From Escherichia phage Esco_phi_B-01, in the sequence record OP292222.1: a DNA stretch of 64,000 nt. One strand, 5' to 3'. Positions 19,358 to 62,619 of the stretch are shown here, piece by piece. A model generated the notes under the pieces. It searched no databases. It worked only from the letters and a program-made list of their open reading frames with translations, and was not told the DNA's origin. The stretch's first letter is position 1, and every line of letters begins with the position of its first letter. The position numbers were made by a program, and so were the translations under genes.

Positions 19358-19386
19358 GTTTACTTCTCCTGTAGGCATGATACTAT
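19358..19386 (+). promoter_or_regulatory. T4-type early promoter (GTTTAC - 17 - TGaTACTAT)
   Basis: consensus -35/-10 and conserved leader atagacctgtcaactaatggag. Confidence 0.65.
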
Positions 19387-19412
19387 AGACCTGTCAACTA
19401 ATGGAGAACAAA

Positions 19413-19730
19413 ATGAAAACCATCGACTGTAAAGCGGAATATAAAGTGTATTACCATGGAAGTTGTAGTGTTGCTAATATTGGTAATATGCTTTGTCCTC
19501 CTGAGGAAACAGGAGTTCTGTCTGAAACTGGTCGTAAGAAAAACCTGAACCGTGTGTTCTTTACTGAAGATATTGGTTTGGCTAAGATTTATGCTGGCCG
19601 AGCTGCTCGTTCGGTGGGAGGAGAACCTCGTCTTTATCGTGTAATTGCTCCGGTAGATGTGGTTTGTTTAAATGATACCAAAGGCGCTACGGTTTATCAC
19701 GCTGAATGGGCCTTCTGTGAGGAAATCTAA
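19413..19730 (+). CDS. hypothetical protein (105 aa) with HGS...Y...E spacing
   Basis: ORF track; start moved to the ATG that follows RBS ggaga. Confidence 0.5.
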   Translation: MKTIDCKAEYKVYYHGSCSVANIGNMLCPPEETGVLSETGRKKNLNRVFFTEDIGLAKIYAGRAARSVGGEPRLYRVIAPVDVVCLNDTKGATVYHAEWAFCEEI

Positions 19731-19934
19731 ATGTTTAAATTAGAAATCGTAGTGTTTATTGGTTGGTTTGAAAATGGTAATATGTTTACCAAAGAAACTG
19801 CGCTGGATGTTAGTGACCAAAAAATGATTGAATGGGTTACAGTGCAGTATGCAGAAGTGAATAATGCACTGGTGAAAGCCTTTGTTAATGACAATAAAGT
19901 TTTTGAATATGATGCCCGCATTGAGGAAATCTAA
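19731..19934 (+). CDS. dmd: Dmd-like antitoxin (inhibitor of RnlA/LsoA toxins)
   Basis: VVFIGWFENGNMFTKE...QYAEVNNALVKAF matches remembered T4 Dmd (VVFMGWFKNESMFTKE...QYAEVNKALVKAF). Confidence 0.6.
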   Translation: MFKLEIVVFIGWFENGNMFTKETALDVSDQKMIEWVTVQYAEVNNALVKAFVNDNKVFEYDARIEEI

Positions 19935-20075
19935 ATGGAAGAGGTTGAATGTGTAGTATGTGGTTGTTCGGTATGTGAAGACCAGGCGGTATTTGATGCT
20001 TGGGACAACGCAACTTGTTTAGACTGCGATAGCGAATACGAAGAAATTGCTCATAAACATGAAGACGAGGAATAA
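19935..20075 (+). CDS. small Cys-rich zinc-ribbon protein (46 aa)
   Basis: CVVCGCSVC...CLDC four-Cys pattern; RBS gaggaaa; acidic tail. Confidence 0.4.
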   Translation: MEEVECVVCGCSVCEDQAVFDAWDNATCLDCDSEYEEIAHKHEDEE

Positions 20076-20315
20076 ATGAATATTGTATTAATGAAGCCGA
20101 CCTCTAGCTCTTTTTGGAATAAATCTTTTGGTAAGCATAATATGTTTATCCAACGCACCGTAAGCAGCTGGGAACTAGTTCTTTCAGTCGGTCACAACGA
20201 TTATGAACAAGAATACGTAGAGTTCTTCGAATTTCCTGTGAAGCCTACTAAGCGTCAGATTCGTCAGACCAAACATAAATTCCGTAAAATTTATTTGGAA
20301 GATTCATTAAAATAA
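20076..20315 (+). CDS. hypothetical protein (79 aa)
   Basis: ORF track; directly follows the upstream stop. Confidence 0.5.
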   Translation: MNIVLMKPTSSSFWNKSFGKHNMFIQRTVSSWELVLSVGHNDYEQEYVEFFEFPVKPTKRQIRQTKHKFRKIYLEDSLK

Positions 20316-20316
20316 A

Positions 20317-20346
20317 GTTTACAACGGTCTATGGTAGTGATACTAT
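20317..20346 (+). promoter_or_regulatory. T4-type early promoter (GTTTAC - 18 - TGaTACTAT)
   Basis: consensus plus conserved leader atagacctatcaactaatgaggag. Confidence 0.65.
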
Positions 20347-20374
20347 AGACCTATCAACTAATGAGGAGTTAAAA

Positions 20375-20668
20375 ATGAAAAAGTTATTAATCGCAGCAAT
20401 CCTTACAGTAGCATCATGTGGTACAGCTCCAGTTACGGCTGGATTGGATAAAGACCTTTGTGAATGGTCTATGACCGCAGACCAAGAATCAGTTGAACAT
20501 CAGATTTACGCTGATATCATGAATATCACTAAACGTGACCGTCCTGATATGGTTAAAGAAGTATCTGACCAATTGGCTTCTAGCGGTGTTATGCAGTATA
20601 ACTATGTTCTGTACTGTGATGCTAATTTCGATAACAAAAATATTGTTAAAGAGGTGATAGGTGAATAA
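20375..20668 (+). CDS. sp: Spackle-like periplasmic protein (Sp)
   Basis: 97 aa with signal peptide; DKDLCEWSMTADQ...VMQYNYVLYCD resembles remembered T4 Sp. Confidence 0.5.
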   Translation: MKKLLIAAILTVASCGTAPVTAGLDKDLCEWSMTADQESVEHQIYADIMNITKRDRPDMVKEVSDQLASSGVMQYNYVLYCDANFDNKNIVKEVIGE

Positions 20669-21101
20669 GATTAACAGAAATTTGGTTATCAAAAAGCTCC
20701 GTTGCAAAAATCCAAATGCACAAGCATACAGGATGTTTTGGAGCGACGACCACCAGTACCTGGGTTATTTTCTTGTTGATAGTGATGATAGAATTACAAT
20801 GGCCCATAAACTTCTTAACAGAGAATTAAACCATTGGCAAGAACTTATTGCGGTAAGGTCTAAATTATTTTCATGTAATGCAATGCATCAATTGGTTTAT
20901 TTTTTCGCTGAAGGTATTCCTGACAAGGTTGAGTTTGATGGATTCGAATTTAAAGATATCCACCCGGACAACGAATTGAACGACCGCGTTAATATGGATA
21001 TCCCTAGCAAGTATATCAAAAACAGTCTGTTGAAAATTCTGGAAGCTCCGGTTTATTCAATTGACGACCAGATTTTTAATGCCTTTATGAACCGAGGTTA
21101 A
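20661..21101 (+). CDS. hypothetical protein (146 aa)
   Basis: ORF track; GTG start preceded by aaagagg. Confidence 0.5.
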   Translation: MNKINRNLVIKKLRCKNPNAQAYRMFWSDDHQYLGYFLVDSDDRITMAHKLLNRELNHWQELIAVRSKLFSCNAMHQLVYFFAEGIPDKVEFDGFEFKDIHPDNELNDRVNMDIPSKYIKNSLLKILEAPVYSIDDQIFNAFMNRG

Positions 21102-21102
21102 T

Positions 21103-21294
21103 ATGACTGCAATGTGTACGGGCTCTAAGATTTCTGTATTCGAACTGTTCGAAGAATATGAAATCGTATCAAAAGACCAAGAAGCTATCCATATTATTGC
21201 CGGTGATGGCGTAACTTGGATTATCCCACTTTACCACGAAGATACATATGAAGTCACTGATGCAAATGGTGATAAAGCTATTTTCGTAATATAA
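21103..21294 (+). CDS. hypothetical protein (63 aa)
   Basis: ORF track; start 2 nt after upstream stop. Confidence 0.45.
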   Translation: MTAMCTGSKISVFELFEEYEIVSKDQEAIHIIAGDGVTWIIPLYHEDTYEVTDANGDKAIFVI

Positions 21295-21297
21295 ATA
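21290..21297 (+). promoter_or_regulatory. T4 late promoter box TATAAATA
   Basis: exact TATAAATA 14 nt upstream of the ATG at 21311. Confidence 0.45.
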
Positions 21298-21310
21298 AGG
21301 CCAGGAGCCT

Positions 21311-21472
21311 ATGAAATCTTTTAAAGAAGTTATGAACGAAGATATGGTCGCAGGCGATGCTGGTGGAAATCCATCTAATATTGCCTCCGGAACTACCTCA
21401 GGCGCAGTCGTCAACAAAGGGCCTGAACAAATCCCATCTAAAAAGCGTAAAGAAAAATCCGAAAACGAATGA
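21311..21472 (+). CDS. small Gly/Ser-rich protein (53 aa) with basic tail
   Basis: RBS aggag; preceded by a late-promoter box. Confidence 0.4.
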   Translation: MKSFKEVMNEDMVAGDAGGNPSNIASGTTSGAVVNKGPEQIPSKKRKEKSENE

Positions 21473-21510
21473 TATAATGGCTCTATTAATTTAGAGCCCA
21501 AGGAAAAATA

Positions 21511-22539: not shown

Positions 22540-22736
22540 ACAGGAACTCCGCTAAAGAATCCAATTATGCTTAATACGTGTTCCATTGTAACCGCTGGTA
22601 AAATTACCCCTTGGCTAGCGGCTACAGGAACTACTAAAAGATTCCAAAGGAATACGTCTAGCGCAAGAAAACCTAACATCATTTTCTTGTCTTTCTTTTC
22701 AGCCAATTTCCAGATTTGGTAAAAAATACTACCCAT
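22536..22736 (-). CDS. small membrane protein (66 aa) on the opposite strand
   Basis: strong minus-strand RBS AGGAGGA 5 nt before ATG; amphipathic N-terminus then TM segment. Confidence 0.5.
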   Translation of the reverse strand: MGSIFYQIWKLAEKKDKKMMLGFLALDVFLWNLLVVPVAASQGVILPAVTMEHVLSIIGFFSGVPV

Positions 22737-23627: not shown

Positions 23628-23632
23628 TTATA

Positions 23633-23656
23633 AGGAACCTTCGGGTTCCTTTTTTC
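23633..23656 (+). terminator. intrinsic terminator (aggaacc-ttcg-ggttcct + T6)
   Basis: GC stem, UUCG loop, T run. Confidence 0.7.
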
Positions 23657-23665
23657 GTTTTAGTA

Positions 23666-23695
23666 GTTTACTTTACGAGTAGGCCATGTTAAGAT
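23666..23695 (+). promoter_or_regulatory. T4-type early promoter (GTTTAC - 18 - TGtTAAGAT)
   Basis: -35 consensus with weaker -10. Confidence 0.5.
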
Positions 23696-23721
23696 AGATG
23701 TATCTTATAGAGGAGAACACT

Positions 23722-23931
23722 ATGTTAAATCGTTGGATTAAACCAAATAAAACTTTGGATGAAATTATCGCTAATCACGTATTGAAAAAGTACTTCTATA
23801 CTCCTTGGTATACCGAAGTTATTGTCCATTCATTTATGATGCATGAAGACGGTTCTATCGAATTTAACGCCGAAATCCGTCACGAGACTGATGATATTGA
23901 TAAAGTTGAATTTAAACGAGGTTTCCTATGA
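23722..23931 (+). CDS. hypothetical protein (69 aa)
   Basis: start after RBS aggag; the track ATG at 23698 lies inside the promoter. Confidence 0.5.
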   Translation: MLNRWIKPNKTLDEIIANHVLKKYFYTPWYTEVIVHSFMMHEDGSIEFNAEIRHETDDIDKVEFKRGFL

Positions 23932-25305: not shown

Positions 25306-25538
25306 TGAATTGGCTAACTAATATACCTACATCGGCGTTGGATATCGACCGTAAACAAGCTCGTAAGGAAACCGAGCAAAAAAATATTCAGGCAAAAGCT
25401 CCTAAGATTGAAGTTGAGAAGCCAGAAACAAAAAGCTCTTATGAATCAAAAAGCTCCTATACTTCATATACCCAATCCTCATTAGGCATGGCTGCCGACA
25501 TTGCGGTGTTTGGCGTCCCACTTGGTGTGTTTAAGTAG
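25305..25538 (+). CDS. hypothetical protein (77 aa) with C-terminal hydrophobic segment
   Basis: first ATG overlapping the upstream stop (track start is a TTG). Confidence 0.45.
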   Translation: MNWLTNIPTSALDIDRKQARKETEQKNIQAKAPKIEVEKPETKSSYESKSSYTSYTQSSLGMAADIAVFGVPLGVFK

Positions 25539-25566
25539 TTTACATCTCCTCCCTTCATGTTATAAT
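25538..25566 (+). promoter_or_regulatory. T4-type early promoter (GTTTAC - 17 - TGtTATAAT)
   Basis: consensus; inverted repeat atgacctc/gaggtcat downstream covers the RBS and ATG. Confidence 0.6.
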
Positions 25567-25590
25567 GACCTCTAAATCACTGGAGGTCAT

Positions 25591-26160
25591 ATGAACATCG
25601 AACAAAAATGTCTTTATCAAGACCGAATCAATTCCAAATTTTCAAAATCTGAACAAGCGTTGTTAGAGAAATGTCTGGATGCCAAAAAAGACCCTAACTT
25701 ACATTATGACCTAGACAAACTAGTTCGTAAACATGTTACTTCGGCCGTTCCGGTAGAGCTTTATCGTGGGATTACCACCAGAGAACTTGAGCAATTAGAG
25801 CTCCTTTCAGTAGGGTGCCACTGGTCTCCTGGTCGGGTTACTTCTTTTAGTACACAATACTCTCAGGCTTGCCAGTTCGCAGGGTCATGGGAATATGGAA
25901 CCAAAACCATTTTAAGTCTCAGGAATGCACCCTTCATTTTTGACTACTACAATCATGCTATCGACCTTGTTCTTGCAGGGAATGCGGACGAACTTGAAAT
26001 AGATGAAACCCGTATTGACCTCTATGATATGGTCGAAACCGAATGTGAGTTCATGGTCTCTAGTCTATCACGGTTCGAGATTGTGGAAATCGAAACTATC
26101 AAAAGGGACCCATACGACATCGAGTACAAAATAATTCATTTAAAAATGTTGGATTTTTAG
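25591..26160 (+). CDS. modB: ADP-ribosyltransferase, ModB-like (R-S-E type)
   Basis: LYRGI (Arg), FSTQ (S-x-S), ECEFMV (E-x-E); position relative to srd and dda as in T4. Confidence 0.55.
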   Translation: MNIEQKCLYQDRINSKFSKSEQALLEKCLDAKKDPNLHYDLDKLVRKHVTSAVPVELYRGITTRELEQLELLSVGCHWSPGRVTSFSTQYSQACQFAGSWEYGTKTILSLRNAPFIFDYYNHAIDLVLAGNADELEIDETRIDLYDMVETECEFMVSSLSRFEIVEIETIKRDPYDIEYKIIHLKMLDF

Positions 26161-26189
26161 TTTACAGGCAAGGATGCTTATGTTACTAT
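26160..26189 (+). promoter_or_regulatory. T4-type early promoter (GTTTAC - 18 - TGtTACTAT)
   Basis: consensus elements. Confidence 0.55.
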
Positions 26190-26214
26190 CTTTCTATCAA
26201 CTGAGGAGAATAAT

Positions 26215-26829
26215 ATGTTATATCCAAGCCATAAATTAGCAGAATTTATCAACAATGCCAAATGCGATGATTTCCGTGAGAATACTCAGATAGAAATTGA
26301 TGAGGTGTATTCTGATTTAGAACAGAGCACGCTCTGGCAGTGTATGGAAAATAAACCTGATTCTATCCAGGAAACTCTGAACAAAATTATTCGTAAGAAC
26401 CTGACTTCTGTAGTGCCTGATAAGCTCTATCGCGGTATATCTAAAAAGACCCTGAAGTATCTAGAGTCCACAATGTGTGTGGGTGCGGTAATTGAATTCG
26501 ACCGCGTGATGAGCTTCTCTAAAGACTTCAACGTAGCAAGGAATTTCGCATCTTATAACTTCTACGGCACATTTAATATCTTTTGTATTAATGATGCGCC
26601 ATTTGTGTACAATTATCAGGAAGAAATCTTTAAAATGTTATGTGCTGCGCCCCCTGAAGAGTTCCCAGGCGCATTTCCTGAATCTACCCGTGTAGCAAAC
26701 TTACAATTAATTAATGATGAAGATGAGATGATGTTCCCTGCGGGAACTACGCTGCGCGTAGACTCTATTGAGAGAAATCCTAAATGGAATAATTACACCA
26801 TTTGGAATCTTTCCGTTCTTTCTTACTGA
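26215..26829 (+). CDS. modA: ADP-ribosyltransferase, ModA-like (R-S-E type)
   Basis: LYRGIS, MSFSKDF, EDEMMF motifs; paralog of the upstream gene. Confidence 0.55.
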   Translation: MLYPSHKLAEFINNAKCDDFRENTQIEIDEVYSDLEQSTLWQCMENKPDSIQETLNKIIRKNLTSVVPDKLYRGISKKTLKYLESTMCVGAVIEFDRVMSFSKDFNVARNFASYNFYGTFNIFCINDAPFVYNYQEEIFKMLCAAPPEEFPGAFPESTRVANLQLINDEDEMMFPAGTTLRVDSIERNPKWNNYTIWNLSVLSY

Positions 26830-26898: not shown

Positions 26899-26927
26899 GT
26901 TTACTTTATTAAGCAACATGATACTAT
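26899..26927 (+). promoter_or_regulatory. T4-type early promoter (GTTTAC - 17 - TGaTACTAT)
   Basis: consensus plus conserved leader atagacctatcaactaat. Confidence 0.65.
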
Positions 26928-26967
26928 AGACCTATCAACTAATCGTCCGTAAGATGAGAAAAATATC

Positions 26968-27717
26968 ATGCCTACTATTAAAACTAGCGATGAATTTGAG
27001 TTAAAGGTTTACAACCGCCGCAAACACACCAAAGCTTCTGCTTATAAACGTGGTAAGGACTTCAATCTGTCTAGTAAGTATGTTCGTAGACTTCTCGAAC
27101 AAAAAGTGTGCGCTTATTCAGGCGAGTACTTTGATGAAAATTCAGTTAATGATAAGATTTCATTTGAACGTTTTAACAACGATATCGGCTATATTGAGGG
27201 TAATGTAATCCCAGTTAAAGTTAAGTATAACAGCTTACGTGCCGATTTGTCCCTTGATGAACTGAAACGTGCCCAGACTCGTTTAGCAGTTCGTATTTCA
27301 GGTAGTTCTAAAATGCCTAATAGTTTTAAAGTTACCCCTGATAATTATTATAAAATCCGTAAAATCGTTAAAAATATAAAAGATACCCAAAGAGGTCTTA
27401 AAAAACGTGAAAAACGTCTTAAAGACCTTATTAAATCGGGAGCTACTGATAAGACTCCTTCTGTTATCGCGGTTAAGGCCCGTATCCACGGTTCTAACGC
27501 TTCAATCGGTACTATGGAAAAAGGTCTTAAATCTTTAATTGGTGGGCCTGACTGGCGCGTCAAGTTTAAATTGTCTGAAGCAGAAACGCGTTACGATATG
27601 TATGATAAAATTATTCAAGGTCTGGAGCGTTTAGAACACCTTTCTTTTATTGACAAATTGAAGTTGAAAAAAGGTCTTCCGCTGAATGCTTCAATTTTTT
27701 CACTGATTAGAGGTTAA
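26968..27717 (+). CDS. srd: Srd-like protein (name by position and size)
   Basis: 249 aa ORF located modA - srd - dda.1 - dda as in T4; contains a CxxxGE...N...N HNH-like core lacking the His residues. Confidence 0.55.
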   Translation: MPTIKTSDEFELKVYNRRKHTKASAYKRGKDFNLSSKYVRRLLEQKVCAYSGEYFDENSVNDKISFERFNNDIGYIEGNVIPVKVKYNSLRADLSLDELKRAQTRLAVRISGSSKMPNSFKVTPDNYYKIRKIVKNIKDTQRGLKKREKRLKDLIKSGATDKTPSVIAVKARIHGSNASIGTMEKGLKSLIGGPDWRVKFKLSEAETRYDMYDKIIQGLERLEHLSFIDKLKLKKGLPLNASIFSLIRG

Positions 27718-30268: not shown

Positions 30269-30297
30269 GTTTACTTCTCCTCATGACATGATATTAT
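30269..30297 (+). promoter_or_regulatory. T4-type early promoter (GTTTAC - 17 - TGaTATTAT)
   Basis: consensus elements. Confidence 0.6.
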
Positions 30298-30324
30298 CTA
30301 CCCTATCAACATGAGGAGAACAAA

Positions 30325-30834
30325 ATGAAACTTTATCGAGTTGAGTCATCGTTCAGTATCTTAGATGATGGAAACGCTATCACAATACGACGAGACCTCT
30401 GTACTCAAATGACCCCGTATAGAAGTACAACAGACTCATGGAGTGAAGGCTGGTTATTAGAAGTAGGTTTAGACAGGCCTATTTTTAGACACCATCATAG
30501 CATTAATAAAAATATCCCACTACCAAGTCAAGATAAGCTGTTGGTAGAAAATTCTAATAAAGCCATTAGAACTAAGTGGAAAAGGCCTGATTATGAAGGC
30601 TCTGATGATTATATTCCAGGTTGGTTTGTTAACCTCTACCATTTTGCTTTTGCCAGTGAGTATGATATGATGCGCTGGTTCACTCGTGAAGAGCGTGAAG
30701 AATTATCTTCTAAAGGATTCTATCTTGCTGTTTACGAAATACCAGAAGATGAGGTTGTCATCGGTGGCCGCCAAGTAATGTTCCGCAAATCCCATGCCGA
30801 ACTTGTAGATTTTATTGAATTGAGAACAATATGA
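30325..30834 (+). CDS. hypothetical protein (169 aa)
   Basis: ORF track; RBS gaggaga. Confidence 0.55.
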   Translation: MKLYRVESSFSILDDGNAITIRRDLCTQMTPYRSTTDSWSEGWLLEVGLDRPIFRHHHSINKNIPLPSQDKLLVENSNKAIRTKWKRPDYEGSDDYIPGWFVNLYHFAFASEYDMMRWFTREEREELSSKGFYLAVYEIPEDEVVIGGRQVMFRKSHAELVDFIELRTI

Positions 30835-31381: not shown

Positions 31382-31410
31382 GTTTACTTTATCGAGGGCC
31401 ATGTTATAAT
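31382..31410 (+). promoter_or_regulatory. T4-type early promoter (GTTTAC - 17 - TGtTATAAT)
   Basis: consensus elements. Confidence 0.6.
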
Positions 31411-31452
31411 GGCTCTCATGGATTATAAACCTTTAACCAAGAGAGAAAAATT

Positions 31453-32019
31453 ATGATTACTATTTCCGATATCGGCAGTATCGTTCGTGTATCCAAAAAG
31501 TCTCGTTCAAAAGCTGCGGGCAGTTTAGTTGAAGTTGTTAGCATCCAACTTAAAGAAGGTGTCAGTGAAGAAAATTATGAAGTAAAAGTTCGTATCATTC
31601 CTAAAAATCGCCAGACTGAAACCCAATTCGGTTATGTGCGCGCTAAATTCTTGGAATCGACTGAATTTACCGGATACATCGCTCCCGTAGTTGAAGAAGT
31701 TGAATCCCATGATGGGTATGTATGTGAAAGCAATGATATCCGTGGCGTAGTAGCTCAAGACGTTGAAACTATTGACCAATCTCATGTCGGCGTTGATTTC
31801 AAATGGAAATTAGGTCGAGGAGTGTGTTTTAATACTCCTAAACCGTTCAAATATGTTGACGAACCTTTTGGTACTTATGAAACTACTAGCATGTCCGGTT
31901 ACATCACAGACCAGTGGGTTGAAGAAGGCGTTAAGCTTTATAACATCGTGTTCCTTGGAACCTTTAAAGTGGTTCCTGAAAGCTTTATTGTCGAGTATGC
32001 TAATATTCATCGTGCATAA
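31453..32019 (+). CDS. hypothetical protein (188 aa), paralog of 30831-31379
   Basis: see paralog; RBS gagagaaaaa. Confidence 0.55.
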   Translation: MITISDIGSIVRVSKKSRSKAAGSLVEVVSIQLKEGVSEENYEVKVRIIPKNRQTETQFGYVRAKFLESTEFTGYIAPVVEEVESHDGYVCESNDIRGVVAQDVETIDQSHVGVDFKWKLGRGVCFNTPKPFKYVDEPFGTYETTSMSGYITDQWVEEGVKLYNIVFLGTFKVVPESFIVEYANIHRA

Positions 32020-32033: not shown

Positions 32034-32063
32034 GTGTACAACAAGATAGGGTAGTGATAAGAT
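32034..32063 (+). promoter_or_regulatory. early-type promoter variant (GTGTAC - 18 - TGaTAAGAT) inside an inverted repeat agggta/taccct
   Basis: near-consensus -35 and extended -10. Confidence 0.4.
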
Positions 32064-32179
32064 TACCCTATCAAAACAAATGAGTGATGGAGAATAAAAA
32101 TGTTTGCACCTTATATTATGATTGCAGTTATCGTTATCTGTCTGTATCTTTTAATTAAAGCTTGTTAAGGAGATTCAAA

Positions 32180-32398
32180 ATGGCTAAAGTTGCTGTGAAC
32201 TCAACTCGCGAAGAATTTGAAGATGTTCTGTTCAACCCTGATTTAATCGTAGTTCAAAAGGAACATTCTGATACGTTTTCTCATTTATCGTCGGTTTATG
32301 TATACGAAAATCAAGGTGATAAAAACCCTATCTATGCAGTGTTCCGTGAAATTACTGCTGAAGGTACTGACTTCTGGAAGGAAACTTATAATGCGTAA
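32180..32398 (+). CDS. hypothetical protein (72 aa)
   Basis: start after RBS aaggaga. Confidence 0.45.
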   Translation: MAKVAVNSTREEFEDVLFNPDLIVVQKEHSDTFSHLSSVYVYENQGDKNPIYAVFREITAEGTDFWKETYNA

Positions 32399-35368: not shown

Positions 35369-35396
35369 GTTTACAACAGATTAAAAGTGTGATACG
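35369..35396 (+). promoter_or_regulatory. early-type promoter (GTTTAC - 16 - TGtGATACG), weak -10
   Basis: consensus -35 only. Confidence 0.35.
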
Positions 35397-35416
35397 ATTC
35401 TCTAAGAGGTGAGAAT

Positions 35417-35740
35417 ATGATTATGCAAGATAATAGTATAGTGAACACTGATAACTTGGCTTTGTCTTTTATGGAGACCGCAATTCGCAATTGTAAAGAC
35501 GAAGGAGTCGTGATTACAAGTGGCAAGGGACTAGAATATCTTAAGGCTGTAAAATCTATTGCCTTAAAGATTAAAGATAACCAGGCGCTCTCTCCTGTTG
35601 TCCAGGAAAAGGTTCTGGAGATATTGTATCGCCACAGAGAGCACAAAAGTACAATGGGTTCTATGAGAAGAATTCTGGCTGAACTGGGTTCTACCAGAGA
35701 ATATGTTCAACATGAGGTAGTTAAAAATGACAAACTTTAA
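35417..35740 (+). CDS. hypothetical protein (107 aa)
   Basis: ORF track; RBS aagaggtgag. Confidence 0.5.
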   Translation: MIMQDNSIVNTDNLALSFMETAIRNCKDEGVVITSGKGLEYLKAVKSIALKIKDNQALSPVVQEKVLEILYRHREHKSTMGSMRRILAELGSTREYVQHEVVKNDKL

Positions 35741-40183: not shown

Positions 40184-40213
40184 GTTTACATACGCCATGG
40201 ATGGTGTTACTAT
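40184..40213 (+). promoter_or_regulatory. T4-type early promoter (GTTTAC - 18 - TGtTACTAT)
   Basis: consensus plus leader cctatcaactacatgagagg. Confidence 0.6.
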
Positions 40214-40244
40214 CTTCCTATCAACTACATGAGAGGAAAACAAA

Positions 40245-40505
40245 ATGGATATCAAATTATATTACGCTAAACACAAAGTTACGGGTAAAGTTGTTGCCGC
40301 AATGTATGATGCATCAGGTGAAGATGTTATTACGGAATTATCCCTTTCTAATTGTAGATTTCTTCGTCCTTTGATAGCGTCAAAAAAAGATTTACAAAAA
40401 CTTATCGACGGTAAATTAGATAATGTCGATGGTATAGATATCCATTATGAACTCCGCCATGCACTGAATGATGGGTTTATGGAAATAAAAGAGATAGTAT
40501 TATGA
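40245..40505 (+). CDS. hypothetical protein (86 aa)
   Basis: ORF track; RBS gagagg. Confidence 0.5.
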   Translation: MDIKLYYAKHKVTGKVVAAMYDASGEDVITELSLSNCRFLRPLIASKKDLQKLIDGKLDNVDGIDIHYELRHALNDGFMEIKEIVL

Positions 40506-40730: not shown

Positions 40731-40759
40731 GTATACATCTCCATTAGACATGATACTAT
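40731..40759 (+). promoter_or_regulatory. early promoter variant (GTATAC - 17 - TGaTACTAT)
   Basis: consensus -10 and leader atagacctatcaactaatggag. Confidence 0.5.
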
Positions 40760-40785
40760 AGACCTATCAACTAATGGAGATGATT

Positions 40786-40896
40786 ATGAAAAACTTACTT
40801 AAAGCAATTTGGAACATGTTTGTGTTATTGGTTGTATTGAGCATTTTCCCAATAGTTTTTATGATTGACCACGTACGTGTATTCTTTAACTTCTGA
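40786..40896 (+). CDS. small membrane peptide (36 aa)
   Basis: RBS ggaga 5 nt before ATG; hydrophobic core. Confidence 0.35.
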   Translation: MKNLLKAIWNMFVLLVVLSIFPIVFMIDHVRVFFNF

Positions 40897-41308: not shown

Positions 41309-41653
41309 ATGTCTAAAGTATTTTTTGGTAATGCTAAGATTATGTTCTTTGAGCAACTCAGTCTTAAAGAGGCATTGGCAGCCTTCAATCAAGAACTGGT
41401 TACTGGGTTAGATTCAAAAACTATGGCAAGCGCGGATTTCGTTTTCGTTCAAGACCCGGATACAGGGTTTTATCGATTCATCAAATTCCGTATGAGCATG
41501 GACCCTGACTATCGTAGTGCTTACTATGTGAGTTACGAAAATGTTATCAAAGAATTACGTGATACCTATGGACGTGCTTTGAACCCACTGAATAAGGTAT
41601 ATAATGCGTCCTTTTATACGAGCGGATTTATTTTAGAACAGCTACAAAAATAG
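41309..41653 (+). CDS. hypothetical protein (114 aa)
   Basis: ORF track; RBS gaggaaa. Confidence 0.5.
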   Translation: MSKVFFGNAKIMFFEQLSLKEALAAFNQELVTGLDSKTMASADFVFVQDPDTGFYRFIKFRMSMDPDYRSAYYVSYENVIKELRDTYGRALNPLNKVYNASFYTSGFILEQLQK

Positions 41654-41681
41654 TTTACAACCTCGAGAATCATGTTATAAT
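41653..41681 (+). promoter_or_regulatory. T4-type early promoter (GTTTAC - 17 - TGtTATAAT)
   Basis: consensus elements. Confidence 0.6.
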
Positions 41682-41730
41682 GGTTCTCGTTGACTGGATA
41701 ACAAAACATTAATCTACTGAGGAAATTGAT

Positions 41731-42180
41731 ATGAATACTTATATGACTCGCGGTAACGTTCTGTCTGCTGGTGCTACTACTGTTGCTTATGTTAAGAATG
41801 GCGAATACCAAAATGGTAAGCCTTCTAAAGAAATCTCAGCTCAGCCAGGCTTCTACTTCTTTGTTAAAGGTGAAGCAGATTCTCGTGTCGTAGCCGCTCG
41901 CTTTTATGTCGGTAACCAACGTTCAGCTCAAGGTCTTGATGGTATTGTGGCTAACATCCGTAAGAAACGTTCTCAATCAGCTCGCACTATGGCAGTGAAT
42001 GGTGTGGTGTATGAAGTTCTTTATGTGCCAGCTTCTAAAATGAAACCTCTGACTACAGGCTTTGGTAAAGGTCAAATTGCAATGGTTTTCACTCGCAATC
42101 ATAGTTCAGACCTTCAGACACTGGAAGAAATGAACCGTATGTTGGCCGATAACTTCAAATTCGTTCTGCAGGCTTACTAA
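41731..42180 (+). CDS. ndd: Ndd nucleoid disruption protein
   Basis: C-terminal half [16 protein letters not shown]...FTRNH...[21 protein letters not shown] essentially identical to T4 Ndd. Confidence 0.8.
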
Positions 42181-44241: not shown

Positions 44242-44342
44242 GCCTTGGAGTCGAGTTCTTGTTACTCTGTATCTTTGCTGTTATCCTAGGCCTGGCAACA
44301 GGCTTAGCTATAGGTTTAATAGCGGCTCACTTTAAAAAGTAA
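44238..44342 (+). CDS. small membrane peptide (34 aa)
   Basis: ATGA overlap with gene 52 stop; ends at the terminator. Confidence 0.3.
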   Translation: MSLGVEFLLLCIFAVILGLATGLAIGLIAAHFKK

Positions 44343-44365
44343 GGAACCTTCGGGTTCCTTTTTTG
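44342..44365 (+). terminator. intrinsic terminator (aggaacc-ttcg-ggttcct + T5)
   Basis: same hairpin as at 23633. Confidence 0.7.
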
Positions 44366-44383
44366 GGTTTAGTGCAAAAAAGT

Positions 44384-44412
44384 GTTTACATCTGCTTTAA
44401 ACATGATACTAT
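44384..44412 (+). promoter_or_regulatory. T4-type early promoter (GTTTAC - 17 - TGaTACTAT)
   Basis: consensus; the spacer also contains TGCTTTA. Confidence 0.6.
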
Positions 44413-44460
44413 AGACCTATCAAATAAATGAACTGAAACAAACAACCCGGAGATACAAAA

Positions 44461-44688
44461 ATGAAATTTAAAATCGAAAACGAAATCGTTAAAGCTAAAA
44501 ATGCTCTGACTGCTAACAAACTGGTTGTAGATGGTATTGAATATGATATCTGTGGAGTTCGTGAAGAAAAACCCGGTGTTCTGACTTTCTTCACAATGAT
44601 TTTTAAATTTAAAGGTGTCACAGAATTCAAACAGTTTGATTTTGCCCCTGAAGACGAAATCGAAGTTCGTAATCTGAACATTAAGTAA
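44461..44688 (+). CDS. hypothetical protein (75 aa)
   Basis: ORF track; RBS ggaga. Confidence 0.5.
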   Translation: MKFKIENEIVKAKNALTANKLVVDGIEYDICGVREEKPGVLTFFTMIFKFKGVTEFKQFDFAPEDEIEVRNLNIK

Positions 44689-44727: not shown

Positions 44728-44756
44728 GTTTACTTCTGCTTTAAACATGATACTAT
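44728..44756 (+). promoter_or_regulatory. T4-type early promoter (GTTTAC - 17 - TGaTACTAT) upstream of motA
   Basis: consensus plus conserved leader. Confidence 0.65.
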
Positions 44757-44790
44757 AGACCTATCAAATAAATGGTTATCGGAGATTAAA

Positions 44791-45423
44791 ATGTCTAAAA
44801 TTACTTACATCATCAAAGCTTCTGAAGACGTCCTGAATGAAAAAACGGCTTCTATCTTAGTACATATCATCAAGAACAACTTCATCACTTCAGGCGAAGT
44901 CCGTGAAGCCCTGAGTGAACAATTTAGTGCAGCGGTAGTTAACTCTAACATCGGTGTATTGATTAAGAAAGGATTCATCGAAAAATCTGGTGATGGACTG
45001 GTGGCTACAGGTGAAGCAATGGACCTAGTTCAAAAAGCTGCCGACCTGTTCGCTTCTGAAAATGCTCCAGAGATGTTGGAAAAACGTAAAACTCGCAGTT
45101 CACGTGGTGTTACTCCTGAAATGGTAGTATTGGCTGATGAAGTTAAATCTTTGTTAGAAGACCGTATCGAGATTCGTGAAATCGCTGAAAACCGTAGCAA
45201 TCTTGAAGTTCGATTCGCTAAACGTACCAATGGTATTCGTCAAATCGAAGTCCGTCGTGACGGAATGATGCGTATCTTCGGTTATAATATGACCGATAAA
45301 GAAAAACAAGTGTTTACTTCTTTGAATCTTGATGTTAAGATTAAGACCGGTGGTAAGAATACTTATATCGACTTCCAAAACGTATCATCTGAAGTTATCA
45401 AAACCGTAACCAACGCAATTTAA
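44791..45423 (+). CDS. motA: MotA middle-transcription activator
   Basis: MSKITYIIKASEDVLNEKTASIL...NSNIGVLIKKGFIEKSGDGL matches T4 MotA; 210 aa. Confidence 0.88.
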   Translation: MSKITYIIKASEDVLNEKTASILVHIIKNNFITSGEVREALSEQFSAAVVNSNIGVLIKKGFIEKSGDGLVATGEAMDLVQKAADLFASENAPEMLEKRKTRSSRGVTPEMVVLADEVKSLLEDRIEIREIAENRSNLEVRFAKRTNGIRQIEVRRDGMMRIFGYNMTDKEKQVFTSLNLDVKIKTGGKNTYIDFQNVSSEVIKTVTNAI

Positions 45424-46754: not shown

Positions 46755-46919
46755 ATGAGTCATAACTTAGAGAATACCGTAACAGGTATGCGTACGCGTG
46801 AGCAGGAGTGCTTTGAGGAATTCCTAGGAGCTGATTTTAAGTTCCAGGAACCTATTGAAGAAATGTATCAGGAATATGTTGTACGGATGAAAAATCATGT
46901 GTACAACCTAGAAGAATAG
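46755..46919 (+). CDS. small acidic hypothetical protein (54 aa)
   Basis: RBS aagggtaaaggg. Confidence 0.35.
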   Translation: MSHNLENTVTGMRTREQECFEEFLGADFKFQEPIEEMYQEYVVRMKNHVYNLEE

Positions 46920-46977
46920 TGTTACAATATTCTTACTGAATAAATGAATGTCCTATTGAATACTTGAGTAAATTAAA

Positions 46978-47253
46978 ATGACTAAAATTGAAATCGTTTC
47001 CGAAATTGCTACTATTGTTTCCATTTTGATTAAAACGGATTGTGAAGACATCATGCAACGCCGTGATGAGTTTATTGCCTTTTTGAATGAGTTAGGTATT
47101 CGTAATGAACATGGAAAGGAACTTAACGGTCTATCTTTTAATAAACTCTTTAAGTCTTTAACTGAAGATGAACGTGATACTCTTATTGAGCAATTTAACG
47201 AAGGGTATGAAGATATACACCGTTATCTAATGATGTATACCTCCAATTTTTAA
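46978..47253 (+). CDS. asiA: AsiA anti-sigma70 factor
   Basis: IVSILIK...FIAFLNE...LTEDE...LIEQFNEGYE...YLMMYT matches T4 AsiA; 91 aa. Confidence 0.88.
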   Translation: MTKIEIVSEIATIVSILIKTDCEDIMQRRDEFIAFLNELGIRNEHGKELNGLSFNKLFKSLTEDERDTLIEQFNEGYEDIHRYLMMYTSNF

Positions 47254-57954: not shown

Positions 57955-57983
57955 GTTTACTTCTTCCAGGGTCATGATATAAT
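57955..57983 (+). promoter_or_regulatory. T4-type early promoter (GTTTAC - 17 - TGaTATAAT) for rnh
   Basis: consensus; diverges from the gene 34 late promoter. Confidence 0.6.
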
Positions 57984-58014
57984 AACCTTCTACACTAATT
58001 GGACAGAGGTTCAT

Positions 58015-58962
58015 ATGAACGATTTAGATTTCTTACTTCCTGAAGAAGACCAACAAAAAGACGGATTTTTACTCCTGGATTTCAGCCAAATCATTATGGC
58101 TGCAGCCTTCCAAGAATTTGGTGAAAGCGCTGGATTTCCTAAAGTAACCACAGCAATGCTTCGACACCTTGTGTTGAATTCAATTAAGAAAAACATTAAA
58201 GACTTTAAAAAACAAGGTTACAACCAACTAATCATTTGTGTTGATAACTCTAAATCAGGTTATTGGCGTCGTCGTTATTCTTCTTATTATAAGAAAAACC
58301 GTGCCAAGGCACGTGACGAATCACCATTTGATTGGGAAGGCTTATTCACTGCAATGCATATTATTGTGGATGAACTGGAACAAAACATGCCTTATATTGT
58401 TATGAATATCGATACAATCGAGGCTGATGACCATATTGCTGTATTGACTCGTATCCTTACGGCTAAAGGCCATCCGGTTATGATTGGTTCTTCTGATGGT
58501 GACTTTACCCAACTTCATAAATTTCCTGGTGTAAAACAATGGTCTCCAATGCAGAAAAAATTCGTCAAAACAAAATCCGGTGATGCTCTGCTTGATTGTG
58601 TGACTAAGGTTGTTAAAGGTGACCGCAAGGACAACGTTGCAAGTATTAAAGTTCGTGGTGATTATTGGTTGACAATGGTTGAAGGCGAACGTACTCCTAG
58701 CACTCGTGCCAAGGAACTTGAAGCAATTGCTCTGAATTATTATGACCATGATATAATTAAAACACTTCTTACTGAGGAACAATATGAACGTTTCTGTGAA
58801 AACCAAATCTTAATTGATATGGACTTTATTCCAGACGATATTGTTGCTTTAATTACTGAAAGATATAATACGTATAACAAACCTTCGAAATCTAAAGTTT
58901 ATCCTTATTTCGTTAAATCAGGTTTGTCTAAACTAACTGCTACAGTAGCTGATTTTTATTAA
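58015..58962 (+). CDS. rnh: RNase H (FEN-1-like 5'-3' exonuclease)
   Basis: LLDFSQI, CVDNSKSGYWRR, SSDGDFTQLH match T4 RNase H. Confidence 0.9.
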   Translation: MNDLDFLLPEEDQQKDGFLLLDFSQIIMAAAFQEFGESAGFPKVTTAMLRHLVLNSIKKNIKDFKKQGYNQLIICVDNSKSGYWRRRYSSYYKKNRAKARDESPFDWEGLFTAMHIIVDELEQNMPYIVMNIDTIEADDHIAVLTRILTAKGHPVMIGSSDGDFTQLHKFPGVKQWSPMQKKFVKTKSGDALLDCVTKVVKGDRKDNVASIKVRGDYWLTMVEGERTPSTRAKELEAIALNYYDHDIIKTLLTEEQYERFCENQILIDMDFIPDDIVALITERYNTYNKPSKSKVYPYFVKSGLSKLTATVADFY

Positions 58963-61187: not shown

Positions 61188-61213
61188 GGGAAGACTTCGG
61201 TCTTCCCTTTTTG
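61188..61213 (+). terminator. intrinsic terminator (gggaagac-ttcg-gtcttccc + T5)
   Basis: 8-bp stem, UUCG loop, T run. Confidence 0.7.
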
Positions 61214-61223
61214 GCATTTAATG

Positions 61224-61252
61224 GTTTACAATGCCTTTAAACATGATACTAT
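61224..61252 (+). promoter_or_regulatory. T4-type early promoter (GTTTAC - 17 - TGaTACTAT)
   Basis: consensus plus conserved leader. Confidence 0.65.
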
Positions 61253-61281
61253 AGACCTATCAACTACATGAGGAAATAAAA

Positions 61282-61650
61282 ATGGAAATTGGTAAATTTT
61301 ACGTATTAGACCCTGCTGCCAAAAAACAATTCATCGCTGGTAGTCCTGATGATAATTATAATTCGTGCATGGTCAAGTTGATGGAACAACATGGCAATTC
61401 CTTCAAAGTCCTGGATATGAGTTATATTGAAGGTGATTATTTTGTTGAAAAAGTTGAAATGAAAGATGGCACTATCCTGAATAGTATGGGTGGGCCTGAT
61501 GAGTACTTTGAACTCGGTGAATGGGAATTCCAACATTTCATGGAAGTTGATGGTGATGCACCTGTTGATACCCAAACCATTCATGTGCAGGTAAACCACA
61601 AAAATGCGGCAGAAGTTGTTGCCTTGATTAAAGCAACCTTTGGAATTTAA
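61282..61650 (+). CDS. hypothetical protein (122 aa), tandem paralog of the next gene
   Basis: shares M.IGK.Y.L.P...EEYFEL.E.EF architecture with 61654-62034. Confidence 0.5.
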   Translation: MEIGKFYVLDPAAKKQFIAGSPDDNYNSCMVKLMEQHGNSFKVLDMSYIEGDYFVEKVEMKDGTILNSMGGPDEYFELGEWEFQHFMEVDGDAPVDTQTIHVQVNHKNAAEVVALIKATFGI

Positions 61651-61653
61651 AAA

Positions 61654-62034
61654 ATGAAAATTGGTAAAAAATACGAACTTCGCCCTGAGTGTATCAAAGC
61701 TTTTATTAATATCACCCCTATCAATAATAATGATATGGTCGATATTATCCAAGAAAACGGCGGGTGGTTTGAAGTAAAGGATACAATGACCACAGATGGG
61801 GATAAATTTGTAACTAAAATCAAATGTGCTAATGGCAAGATTTTTAGTTCGGACGGAACACTAGAGGAATATTTTGAATTGCATGAAGATGAGTTCTATT
61901 GCTTCCGTGAATATGACGAAGATGAAGTTGACAAACCTGTTACTAAGGCAGGCGTGACTCAAATCCATTGCATTGTTACCGAACAGAACGTTGACCAAAT
62001 TATTGAACTTTTGCAAAAAACTTTTAAGGCCTAA
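61654..62034 (+). CDS. hypothetical protein (126 aa), tandem paralog
   Basis: see previous. Confidence 0.5.
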   Translation: MKIGKKYELRPECIKAFINITPINNNDMVDIIQENGGWFEVKDTMTTDGDKFVTKIKCANGKIFSSDGTLEEYFELHEDEFYCFREYDEDEVDKPVTKAGVTQIHCIVTEQNVDQIIELLQKTFKA

Positions 62035-62035
62035 C

Positions 62036-62296
62036 ATGACTAAAGATGATTTCCTGGATGCAGTAGAAAAAGCCAGTGAGAAATTTGAAGTGATGGCTGT
62101 TCGAGTTCACAAAGACCGAAATTACGGCCTCGATATCCAAACGTATTCGTTATGGCTTGTAGGTGAACATAGCCTTGTAACCACTTTAGTTATGGGTGTT
62201 GATGCTCAACCTTTACTGGTTAAATTTAGAAGTATGGAAAAAGCCACCAAGGAAATGATTAAACTTGGTAAATGGCTTGATAAAATTCAAAAATAA
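62036..62296 (+). CDS. hypothetical protein (86 aa)
   Basis: first ATG 2 nt after upstream stop. Confidence 0.45.
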   Translation: MTKDDFLDAVEKASEKFEVMAVRVHKDRNYGLDIQTYSLWLVGEHSLVTTLVMGVDAQPLLVKFRSMEKATKEMIKLGKWLDKIQK

Positions 62297-62298
62297 AT

Positions 62299-62327
62299 GT
62301 TTACAAGGTCTATAGGCATGATACTAT
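62299..62327 (+). promoter_or_regulatory. T4-type early promoter (GTTTAC - 17 - TGaTACTAT)
   Basis: consensus; flanking inverted repeat ggtctatag / ctatagacc. Confidence 0.65.
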
Positions 62328-62359
62328 AGACCTATCAACTAACGAGTGAGGAAAATAAA

Positions 62360-62587
62360 ATGGCTAAGGTTAATATTGATATCGTTGATTTTGAATACAC
62401 CTACGAAGTTATCCGTAATCGTTATCCTTCTTTGACTATGACTTATATCAAAGACACACAATTCTGTAGTATGCAAATTGAAGTCCAAGGTCCTCTTGAA
62501 GACCTTACCCGCTTTATGGCTGATGAATATTGCGATGGTATGCATGCTGAAGACGCTGAATTTTATATGGGCTTAATTCAAAAATAA
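62360..62587 (+). CDS. hypothetical protein (75 aa)
   Basis: ORF track; RBS gaggaaaat. Confidence 0.5.
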
Positions 62588-62589
62588 GT

Positions 62590-62619
62590 GTTTACCTAAG
62601 GCTATGGTAGTGATACTAT
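62590..62619 (+). promoter_or_regulatory. T4-type early promoter (GTTTAC - 18 - TGaTACTAT)
   Basis: consensus; inverted repeat aaggctat / atagcctt around the -10. Confidence 0.6.

Follow-up and report, generated by a model that had tools for sequence, protein, structure and literature searches.

The window analyzed here, a 64,000-nucleotide stretch of Escherichia phage Esco_phi_B-01 (OP292222.1), comes from a Dhakavirus (a JS98-like T4-type coliphage) and is 97% identical to phage JS98. Short cassettes of one design recur along it (Table 1): an A/T-rich upstream region, often holding the stop codon of the preceding gene, is followed by a −35 GTTTAC, a spacer of 17-18 nt, TGn, a −10 TAYWAT, a C-rich discriminator, a leader and an ATG. 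A sequence-only reading had placed this element at 18 coordinates, and the motif is present at all 18. The sites all lie on the + strand, far beyond chance: the strict pattern GTTTAC-N16-19-TACTAT has 10 matches, every one on the + strand, versus 0.03 expected, and the 20-mer TGATACTATAGACCTATCAA has 7 exact and 2 near occurrences versus 0 expected. A weight-matrix search, partly circular because the matrix was built from the sites themselves, returned 21 + strand sites with scores of 21.4 or higher and no − strand site, adding 32034, 35369 and 46899 to the earlier 18, along with a weaker candidate at 45312. The repeat families were also recovered by an independent repeat finder.

Table 1. Predicted early promoter cassettes, named by the gene served, and UUCG-loop terminators in the window.
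Feature	Position	Strand	Details
imm cassette (−35 GTTTAC to ATG)	11034..11096	+	weak embedded stem ATACCAC/GTGGTAT; abuts gene 43 stop codon
UUCG-loop intrinsic terminator after gene 41	19327..19350	+	directly 5' of promoter 19358; repeat family D15
Cassette for 105-aa ORF (phrog_2110, JS98 orf34-like), then dmd	19358..19415	+	spacer TTCTCC pairs with Shine-Dalgarno GGAGAA
sp (spackle) cassette	20317..20377	+	embedded 11-bp stem GGTCTATGGTA-GTGA-TACTATAGACC overlapping −10
UUCG-loop terminator after soc	23632..23657	+	5' of promoter 23666; repeat family D11
mrh.2 cassette	23666..23724	+	−10 is TAAGAT
modB cassette	25538..25593	+	−10/discriminator ATGACCTC pairs with GAGGTCAT spanning Shine-Dalgarno and AUG
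modA cassette	26160..26217	+	motif, weight matrix
srd cassette	26899..26970	+	without strong stem
motB.2 cassette	30269..30327	+	11-bp spacer arm TTCTCCTCATG pairs with Shine-Dalgarno region CATGAGGAGAA
motB cassette	31382..31455	+	embedded stem GAGGGCCAT/ATGGCTCTC around −10
Promoter GTGTAC...TAAGAT, 22-aa hydrophobic mini-ORF (32100-32168) and cef start	32034..32184	+	embedded stem GATAGGGTA/TACCCTATC
Cassette for 107-aa ORF (phrog_5382), 5' of rIIA.1	35369..35419	+	weight matrix
Cassette for 86-aa ORF (phrog_2390)	40184..40247	+	motif
Cassette (GTATAC) for ndd.4-like membrane peptide	40731..40788	+	11-bp spacer arm ATCTCCATTAG pairs with CTAATGGAGAT spanning Shine-Dalgarno
ndd cassette	41653..41733	+	embedded 10-bp stem CGAGAATCAT/ATGGTTCTCG
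UUCG-loop terminator	44341..44366	+	5' of promoter 44384; repeat family D11
Cassette for variable 75-aa ORF (44461-44688, phrog_10955)	44384..44463	+	motif
motA cassette	44728..44793	+	core nearly identical to core of 44384
Weaker candidate promoter inside motA 3' end, 5' of arn.4	45312..45347	+	conserved in all relatives
asiA cassette (GTGTAC...TACAAT)	46899..46980	+	short stem AAGAATA/TATTCTT
rnh cassette, divergent from gene 34	57955..58017	+	discriminator pairs with Shine-Dalgarno region
UUCG-loop terminator after gene 32	61188..61212	+	5' of promoter 61224; terminator search
frd.2a cassette	61224..61284	+	left partner of AnYang deletion
frd.3 cassette	62299..62362	+	embedded 10-bp stem AGGTCTATAG/CTATAGACCT; right partner of AnYang deletion
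frd.1 cassette	62590..62648	+	embedded 12-bp stem AAGGCTATGGTA-GTGA-TACTATAGCCTT

The copies had been described as near-identical, which holds for a core of ~25 nt (extended −10, −10, discriminator and first transcribed bases) but not for the rest, the copies being 61-84% identical over 62 nt. TG at −15/−14 is invariant in the sequence logo of all 21 copies, as are T1, A2, A5 and T6 of the −10; the −35 is GTTTAC in 18 copies and a G(T/A/G)TAC variant in three. C occupies −3 in 16 of 21 copies and −2 in 15, and each of the six positions just 5' of the −35 region is A or T in 17-21 of them. In 11 of the 21 copies, no more than 7 nt separate the upstream stop codon from the −35. Transcription is predicted to start at the A of ATCAAC, giving a leader of 12-43 nt; a Shine-Dalgarno sequence and an ATG, the latter 18-49 nt past the −10, are present in every copy.

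This arrangement agrees with the published architecture of T4 early promoters, namely UP element, −35 GTTTAC, TGn and −10 (Hinton, 2010, PMC2988021; Nolan et al., 2006, PMC1524935), and orthologues of T4 early genes lie downstream. The upstream A-tract and the C-rich −3 to −1 are likewise shared, and the CTATCAAC start region also occurs in T4 matrix matches; the window lineage differs in a −10 that is mostly TACTAT and in a discriminator, AGACCT, that is nearly fixed in nine copies. Nine window promoters have positional counterparts among the T4 matrix matches, which are themselves predicted early promoters, 5' of sp, mrh.2, modB, srd, motB.2, ndd.4, motA, frd.3 and frd.1, and the start rule predicted here also recovers Pe133295 as annotated in T4. 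The cassette comprising a promoter and a 22-aa mini-ORF lies between motB and cef here and between frd.2 and frd.1 in T4. We rejected assignment to T4 middle promoters, which depend on MotA and carry, instead of a −35, a MotA box (TGCTT) centred at −30, as all copies carry a GTTTAC-type −35 at sigma-70 spacing. Unmodified host RNA polymerase would be expected to fire the cassette promoters right after infection, independently of phage protein synthesis. The served genes were thought to be mostly unknown small ORFs; instead, most are named early genes (imm, sp, mrh.2, modB, modA, srd, motB.2, motB, cef, ndd, motA, asiA, rnh, frd.1-3), and the genes flanked by the promoters are mostly conserved.

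An early promoter combined with a stem-loop (between −35 and −10, overlapping the −10, or upstream) and followed by a Shine-Dalgarno sequence and start codon has been termed a PeSL (promoter-early stem-loop; Arbiol et al., 2010, PMC2839356). About 17 of the 21 cassettes fit this definition: 13 have an embedded stem, three of the remaining eight an upstream terminator, and 44728 is counted for an AT-rich hairpin lying upstream, which was recognized by eye alone. Terminators with a UUCG loop, reported as frequently preceding the element, do so at four of the 21 promoters but not at the others. With the PeSLs of phi1/RB49, PST/T4 and nt-1/KVP40 (PMC2839356; Comeau et al., 2014, PMC4122927) the cassettes share the succession of a stop codon in an A/T-rich stretch, strong early promoter, stem-loop, Shine-Dalgarno and ATG, as well as many copies in a single orientation, inter-copy crossovers through which small ORFs are lost, gained or replaced among close relatives, and degraded half-copies adjoining indels. 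They differ in that the promoter is of the T4 type (GTTTAC...TGnTAYWAT) and not a perfect match to the sigma-70 consensus, the stems have a higher A/T content and differ from one another where the known ones are GGGG/CCCC, a subset of stems pairs with the Shine-Dalgarno, for most copies the gene served is a conserved early gene and not an ORFan, and the copies showed no enrichment at indels compared with other gene junctions.

The short inverted repeats noticed around several copies are real and non-random. About two thirds of the cassettes (~13/21) carry one whose 5' arm lies upstream of the predicted start site, and the folding energy, computed over a fixed frame of 62 nt, is −11 kcal/mol or lower in 13 of 21 copies. 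When each spacer was paired with its own leader, the mean duplex energy was −9.45, a value reached by 0 of 20000 permutations, versus −6.66 ± 0.59 for permuted pairings. Folding was stronger in the 11 promoters abutting an upstream stop codon (mean −15.8) than in the other 10 (−7.5; p = 0.0004), and this association of strong stems with upstream stops recurs in T4. Two compensatory double changes distinguish the stem of 20317 from that of its paralogue 62590. Because no T-run follows the embedded stems and the terminator search did not call them terminator-like, they probably do not act as intrinsic terminators. Since transcription from the promoter itself leaves out the 5' arm, the stem can form only in read-through RNA from upstream. 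There it likely attenuates or insulates upstream read-through, by analogy with the only phi1 element for which an attenuating stem-loop was tested (PMC2839356).

In four to five cassettes (orf34-like, motB.2, ndd.4-like, modB and rnh), the stem is predicted to hide the ribosome-binding site as well. The modeled probability that this site is unpaired is 0.13 in read-through RNA versus 0.65 in the promoter's own transcript at 40731, 0.21 versus 0.58 at 30269, and 0.24 versus 0.55 at 57955; in MN04, accessibility rises by at least 0.3 in 3 of 18 promoter genes versus 1 of 58 other genes. Predicted masking is confined to a minority of cassettes. As the site would be hidden in read-through RNA, we propose that those genes are translated mainly from transcripts of their own promoter. 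The ribosome-binding-site hairpins of T4 e, soc, 49 and I-TevI, whose 5' arm contains the proximal promoter (Uzan and Miller, 2010, PMC3014915), are comparable: there too the 5' arm is upstream of the proximal start site, and the Shine-Dalgarno or AUG is masked in long read-through but not in proximal transcripts, as predicted for the window. In those T4 genes, however, the proximal promoter is late and expression is delayed, whereas in the window it is early, and the predicted effect, limited to the same four to five genes, would be to confine translation to the immediate-early period.

We compared the window with six relatives, identifying 22 indel events, and the content flanked by the cassettes varies among these genomes. 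In UGJNEcP3, 44430-44728 is missing, and promoters 44384 and 44728 meet with an overlap of 47 bp; AnYang lacks 61285-62299, with a 63-bp overlap between promoters 61224 and 62299. Conversely, UGJNEcP3 has at 40184 an extra 240-bp ORF flanked by a 47-bp promoter duplicate, and ABTNLsp5 has at 19358 an inserted ORF flanked by promoter copies. The ORF at 44461-44688 is replaced in four relatives, again between promoters 44384 and 44728, and ABTNLsp5 has one mosaic promoter that combines two of those in the window. Because all copies of the 25-60 bp core point the same way, homologous crossover sometimes takes place between two of them, and the small genes in between are deleted, inserted or replaced. 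The modular shuffling of accessory genes suggested by the sequence-only reading is supported: in 4 of 22 events the crossover lies within the shared promoter core. Promoters nevertheless show no excess at indel boundaries over gene junctions generally (13/44 versus 0.28 expected). Boundaries are enriched at promoters over random positions (7e-7), and events with both ends in promoters number 4 versus 1.7 expected (p = 0.08). No promoter is involved in 13 of the 22 events; homing endonucleases and paralogue recombination are among their causes.

This absence of enrichment, the 13 promoter-free events and the predominance of conserved core early genes among those served would all fit ordinary early promoters and nothing more, with similarity due to selection for optimal RNA polymerase binding, inverted repeats incidental, and indels bounded by promoters only because promoters sit at gene boundaries. 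We consider this improbable, given that in four events the crossover falls within the shared core, the junction homology being 47-63 bp, and that one promoter is a mosaic. Moreover, although spacers are the variable part of a promoter, each one is complementary to the sequence downstream of it; such complementarity goes with the lack of a terminator and is found again in T4, where the sequences differ. Small non-autonomous MITE-like elements that transpose and happen to carry promoters would account for the many copies and for the mini-ORF cassette at different loci in T4 and the window phage. The copies, however, share a single orientation, that of early transcription, have neither terminal inverted repeats nor target-site duplications, hold orthologous positions across genera, and are joined by homologous crossovers rather than insertions with duplications, making transposition very unlikely.

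The inverted repeats might also act in DNA, either as cruciforms or single-strand hairpins that draw recombination or a nuclease, or as palindromic operators at which a dimeric phage regulator turns early promoters off. Mini-circle crossovers in RB49 were mapped inside the PeSL loop (PMC2839356), and the mechanism of T4 early-promoter shut-off is unknown (PMC2988021). In addition, the folding asymmetry between + and − strands in the window (−1.95 kcal/mol) is barely above the random 62-mer background (−1.28), so that the RNA-level reading rests mainly on a few G.U-type substitutions; six of ten single stem changes in true orthologues give G.U on the + strand. Yet most mismatches and substitutions in orthologues are of the G.T type on the + strand, equivalent to C.A on the other, which disfavors a two-strand cruciform; the arms stay complementary although their sequences vary between promoters, as would not be expected of a sequence-specific protein site; and the strong stems of T4 fold at −17.6 on the + strand versus −12.6 on the − strand. 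Action in DNA is, in our judgment, as doubtful as the ordinary-promoter explanation.

We place at roughly 85% the probability that the cassettes are sigma-70-dependent early promoters of a JS98-like Dhakavirus organised as PeSL-type units, and the early-promoter and PeSL interpretation first drawn from the sequence is supported. The repeats are about 21 predicted strong early promoters of a T4-type phage, many with a small built-in stem-loop, and they belong to an already known kind of regulatory unit. Genome comparisons show that they occasionally act as crossover points for the gain, loss or swap of small genes, as in other T4 relatives.

The strict early promoter pattern GTTTAC-N16-19-TACTAT has 10 matches in the window, on the + strand only, against 0.03 expected from shuffles, and the 20-mer TGATACTATAGACCTATCAA occurs there as 7 exact copies and 2 copies with 1-2 mismatches, when none is expected. 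Promoters 32034, 35369 and 46899 (numbers are the window positions of each -35 hexamer) came from scanning more loosely and from a weight matrix derived from the sites themselves; they bring the set to 21, and neither search matched the - strand of the window. The same promoter families were recovered by an independent repeat finder, and all 18 sites at which the sequence-only reading had placed the element carry it.

When the 21 copies are aligned by their -10, every one shows TG at -15/-14 and, within the -10, T, A, A and T at positions 1, 2, 5 and 6; the hexamer is mainly TACTAT; A/T-rich bases lie directly 5' of GTTTAC, and the -10 is followed by a-g-a-C-C-T and then A-T-C-A-A-C-T-a-a. With the -10 placed at -12 to -7, the predicted start is the A of ATCAAC, and by this rule a T4 matrix match starts at 133295, the coordinate of the early promoter named Pe133295 in the T4 record. 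Every promoter is followed, 18-49 nt downstream, by a Shine-Dalgarno sequence and ATG. The window promoters are built as published for T4 early promoters, with UP element, -35, TGn and -10 (PMC2988021), and a GTTTAC -35 and a preference for C at -3 to -1 have been noted in T4 relatives (PMC1524935). When three T4 segments were scanned with the promoter matrix, 26/26 matches fell on the early-gene strand. Because the start region CTATCAAC is common to these matches and the window promoters, the "conserved leader" is a Tevenvirinae trait and no peculiarity of JS98. The elements are T4-type early promoters in the form of PeSLs (promoter-early stem-loop cassettes), an identification made with high confidence.

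Over positions 19000-27000 the window shares 97.4% identity with Escherichia phage JS98 (Dhakavirus, Tevenvirinae), and matches to this interval come from 775 T4-type phage records. Gene names follow from synteny with annotated JS98: on the + strand lie, in order, a-gt.x, 47, 46, 45, 44, 62, regA, 43, imm, uvsX, 41, dmd, sp, 61, 56, soc, mrh, modB, modA, srd, dda, dexA, motB, cef, 39, rIIA, rIIB, denB, ndd, 52, motA and asiA; the tail-fibre genes and t occupy the - strand at 47.2-57.9 kb, beyond which rnh, 33, 59, 32, the frd.x genes and frd are again on the + strand. Neither Rfam at gathering thresholds nor a tRNA scan found known RNAs in the window.

The sequence-only account stands in its observation and interpretation; corrections concern how alike the copies are, how often a terminator precedes them and which genes they flank. 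"Near-identical" describes the core of ~25 nt comprising the extended -10, the -10, the discriminator and the first transcribed bases; across 62 nt the repeat finder gives just 61-84% identity, so the term is limited to that core. UUCG-loop terminators, said to precede the promoters frequently, were located by a terminator scan directly before only four of them (terminators at 19327, 23632, 44341 and 61188). Nor are the flanked genes mostly unknown small ORFs, of which there are five: the genes served are mainly named early genes (imm, sp, mrh.2, modB, modA, srd, motB.2, motB, cef, ndd, motA, asiA, rnh, frd.2a, frd.3 and frd.1). The UUCG/UUAG-loop terminators themselves form repeat families on the + strand that are 93-94% identical at distant loci (23631-23664 and 44340-44373; 1284-1311 and 19327-19354), so that this part of the cassettes, too, offers potential homology patches. 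Another UUCG-loop hairpin, AAGGGCTTCGGCCCTT (33253-33268, +), lies upstream of gene 39 and is followed by no early promoter of the GTTTAC type; T4 gene 39 has a mapped middle promoter.

PeSLs were defined in phi1/RB49 by Arbiol et al. (2010) as units comprising an early promoter, an A/T-rich upstream stretch with an upstream stop codon, a stem-loop, and a Shine-Dalgarno sequence with start codon; there, one PeSL stem-loop cut lacZ expression about as strongly as rrnB T1, and JS98 appears in a passing mention of PeSL-like sequences near gene 43 (PMC2839356). PeSLs were later described in PST/T4, with the consensus TTTACW-N17-TAYWAT, and in nt-1/KVP40 by Comeau et al. (2014; PMC4122927). A full-text literature search for JS98 early promoters returned nothing beyond the 2010 paper (PMC2839356). 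Because this definition already includes a stem-loop, the stems embedded in the window promoters are the known element's defining "SL" and no new feature. Nothing here falls outside known kinds; the set is a well-documented addition to a known family.

The promoter spacers are often complementary to downstream sequence within their own promoter. The duplex that a spacer forms with its own -10-to-ATG segment has a mean energy of -9.45 kcal/mol, as compared with -6.66 ± 0.59 for permuted pairings of the 21 promoters, and 0/20000 permutations are as strong as observed. T4 gives the same pattern (-9.85 versus -6.30 ± 0.42 permuted; 0/20000 permutations reach the observed value). In all cases the 5' arm of the inverted repeat lies upstream of the predicted start, and the arm registers vary from promoter to promoter: both arms precede the start and the stem surrounds or overlaps the -10 in eight promoters (20317, 62590, 62299, 31382, 41653, 32034, 46899 and 11034), and the Shine-Dalgarno region forms the 3' arm in five (19358, 30269, 40731, 25538 and 57955). 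In a fixed 62-nt frame, folding energy averages -15.8 kcal/mol for the 11 promoters that start at most 7 nt from the upstream stop codon and -7.5 for the other 10, which have a longer gap or a terminator (one-sided Mann-Whitney p = 0.0004); likewise, T4 promoters abutting the upstream ORF fold at -15.0 versus -9.3 otherwise (p = 0.016). We rejected intrinsic termination by the embedded stems, none of which has a T-run or was called by the terminator scan. By analogy, stems other than those that pair with the Shine-Dalgarno region may serve as attenuators, insulators or 3'-end stabilisers.

Substitutions and strand asymmetry provide evidence on whether pairing is selected, and in RNA or DNA. 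Two compensatory double changes (G-C to A-T; T-A to G-C) separate paralogues 20317 and 62590, and one double change and two wobble changes separate paralogues 31382 and 41653. Among syntenic orthologues from six relatives, the independent single changes within stems number 10, too few to conclude from: six yield G.U on the + strand, a Watson-Crick pair is kept in one, another turns a loop-closing pair into A.C, and the remaining two disrupt terminal pairs. These counts were hand-curated to syntenic copies because automated orthologue alignment took paralogous promoters at some loci. The window promoters fold at -11.9 on the + strand versus -9.9 on the - strand, and because this difference (-1.95 kcal/mol) is near the -1.28 that G/T skew already gives random regional 62-mers, strand asymmetry is a weak test of RNA versus DNA for the window. 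The strong stems of T4 show a clearer asymmetry (-17.6 versus -12.6).

Where the Shine-Dalgarno region is the 3' arm, the predicted unpaired probability of the Shine-Dalgarno-to-AUG segment differs between read-through and own transcripts: 0.13 versus 0.65 for 40731, 0.21 versus 0.58 for 30269, 0.24 versus 0.55 for 57955, 0.35 versus 0.64 for 25538 and 0.43 versus 0.73 for 19358. In the T4 counterparts of the motB.2, ndd.4 and modB promoters, promoter sequence pairs with the Shine-Dalgarno through arm sequences that differ from those of the window. As a control, we used the annotated relative MN04, comparing 18 promoter-served genes with 58 others truncated at the median leader length. Mean accessibility gain was 0.13 versus 0.06 (p = 0.048), and gains of at least 0.3 occurred in 3/18 versus 1/58 (Fisher p = 0.039). 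Because the effect is large in just these 3 of 18 genes, promoter-linked masking of the ribosome-binding site is rejected as a general rule and is a minority feature. PMC3014915 describes masking for T4 e, soc, 49 and I-TevI, in whose long transcripts the 5' arm contains a proximal promoter; that promoter is a late one, whereas those considered here are early.

A broader reading is that the stems are a general T4/Dhakavirus RNA device making mRNA structure promoter-dependent, the cassettes also moving small genes across loci and genera; we regard this as tentative, with a probability of roughly 0.3. Read-through RNA would fold the stem and so attenuate, insulate or mask the ribosome-binding site, promoter-proximal RNA would be unable to fold it, and expression of some early genes would be tied to the brief period in which their own promoter fires. 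These cassettes may also carry small genes between loci and genera, as the two placements of a 22-aa mini-ORF suggest. This hydrophobic ORF, MFAPYIMIAVIVICLYLLIKAC (32100-32168, +), lies between promoter 32034 and cef, an arrangement found in the window and MN04 only, among seven Dhakavirus genomes; the other five have the promoter counterpart and lack the ORF. In T4, the same promoter-leader-ORF unit (MFAPYIMAAVMLVCLYLLIKAC) occupies the unannotated frd.2-frd.1 gap, with the ORF at ~146015-146083 of NC_000866 (- strand). Leader and ORF match 200 phage records over at least 80% of their length, 65 of them at 95-99% identity and the rest including T4-like genomes at ~80% at the frd locus, and the sequence is almost never annotated. 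Promoter and ORF together form a module of the type proposed under the PeSL model, in which a promoter travels with a small gene.

To follow flanked content, we compared the window with JS98, MN04, dhabil, AnYang, ABTNLsp5 and UGJNEcP3, each of which has 17-21 such promoters in a single orientation. Content does vary among the six. In the early regions, chained alignments distinguish 22 indels or replacements of 40 bp or more: four with promoter copies at both ends, five with a promoter at one end and 13 with a promoter at neither, the last including homing endonuclease insertions, frd.2a/frd.2b paralogue recombination and a tandem duplication.

Weaker candidate promoter, and insertions and deletions at promoters
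Feature	Location	Strand	Details
Weaker candidate promoter	45312	+	Inside motA; from looser scan/weight matrix
Deletion	44430-44728, absent in UGJNEcP3		Single hybrid promoter; 47 bp overlapping homology
Deletion	61285-62299, absent in AnYang		From promoter 61224 to promoter 62299; 63 bp overlap
Insertion	40194-40240, UGJNEcP3		Extra 240-bp ORF between full copy and -35-less copy of promoter 40184
Insertion	Within promoter 19358, ABTNLsp5		Extra promoter and 125-aa ORF

Two further differences fit the same picture as the four promoter-bounded events: JS98, dhabil, AnYang and ABTNLsp5 have an unrelated ORF in place of the one at 44461-44688, which lies between near-identical promoters 44384 and 44728, and the ABTNLsp5 frd.3 promoter has a spacer of the 61224 type. 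Indel boundaries fall in promoter zones far more commonly than random positions do (p = 7e-7). Relative to gene junctions generally, we found no excess at promoters for the 22 early-region events (13/44 boundaries versus 0.28 expected), and events with both ends in promoters number 4 versus 1.7 expected (p = 0.08). The cassettes demonstrably take part in recombination in a minority of events.

Other variable segments were observed in these regions. An HNH homing endonuclease ORF of 205 aa (1335-1952, +; phrog_10820, E = 2e-92) directly follows hairpin terminator 1284-1311; JS98 lacks it and has 157 bp in place of the window's 607 bp. Adjoining promoter 40731 upstream is a window-specific 152-bp segment (40571-40722) with a 43-aa ORF (40595-40726, +) that has its own Shine-Dalgarno and no PHROG match; in the six relatives its place is taken by 17 bp or, in dhabil, by a different ORF. 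The interval from ndd to gene 52 (+) has tandem duplications of ~100 nt (42175-42275 and 42470-42570; 78% identity) and 61 nt (42423-42483 and 42727-42787; 92% identity), which contain small ORFs and hairpins and vary in copy number among relatives. The arn.4-arn.3 segment (45771-45927, +) is 155 bp with a 54-aa ORF (phrog_15636) in the window, ~360 bp in JS98, MN04, dhabil and AnYang, and 13 bp in ABTNLsp5 and UGJNEcP3; no promoter copies lie at its boundaries.

These results set limits on the shuffling model, since crossovers in promoter cores account for ~1 in 5 indels and promoters are no hotter than other gene junctions. They also flag a conserved 22-aa gene missed by T4 annotation, a small lead whose product is a predicted membrane peptide. 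The PeSL description, so far drawn from RB49/phi1, T4/PST and KVP40/nt-1, fits Dhakavirus too, and the JS98-type lineage of therapeutic-candidate phages now has a near-complete early-promoter map. Masking of ribosome-binding sites linked to early promoters is a second small lead, which predicts that translation of the 4-5 early genes concerned should depend on transcript origin.
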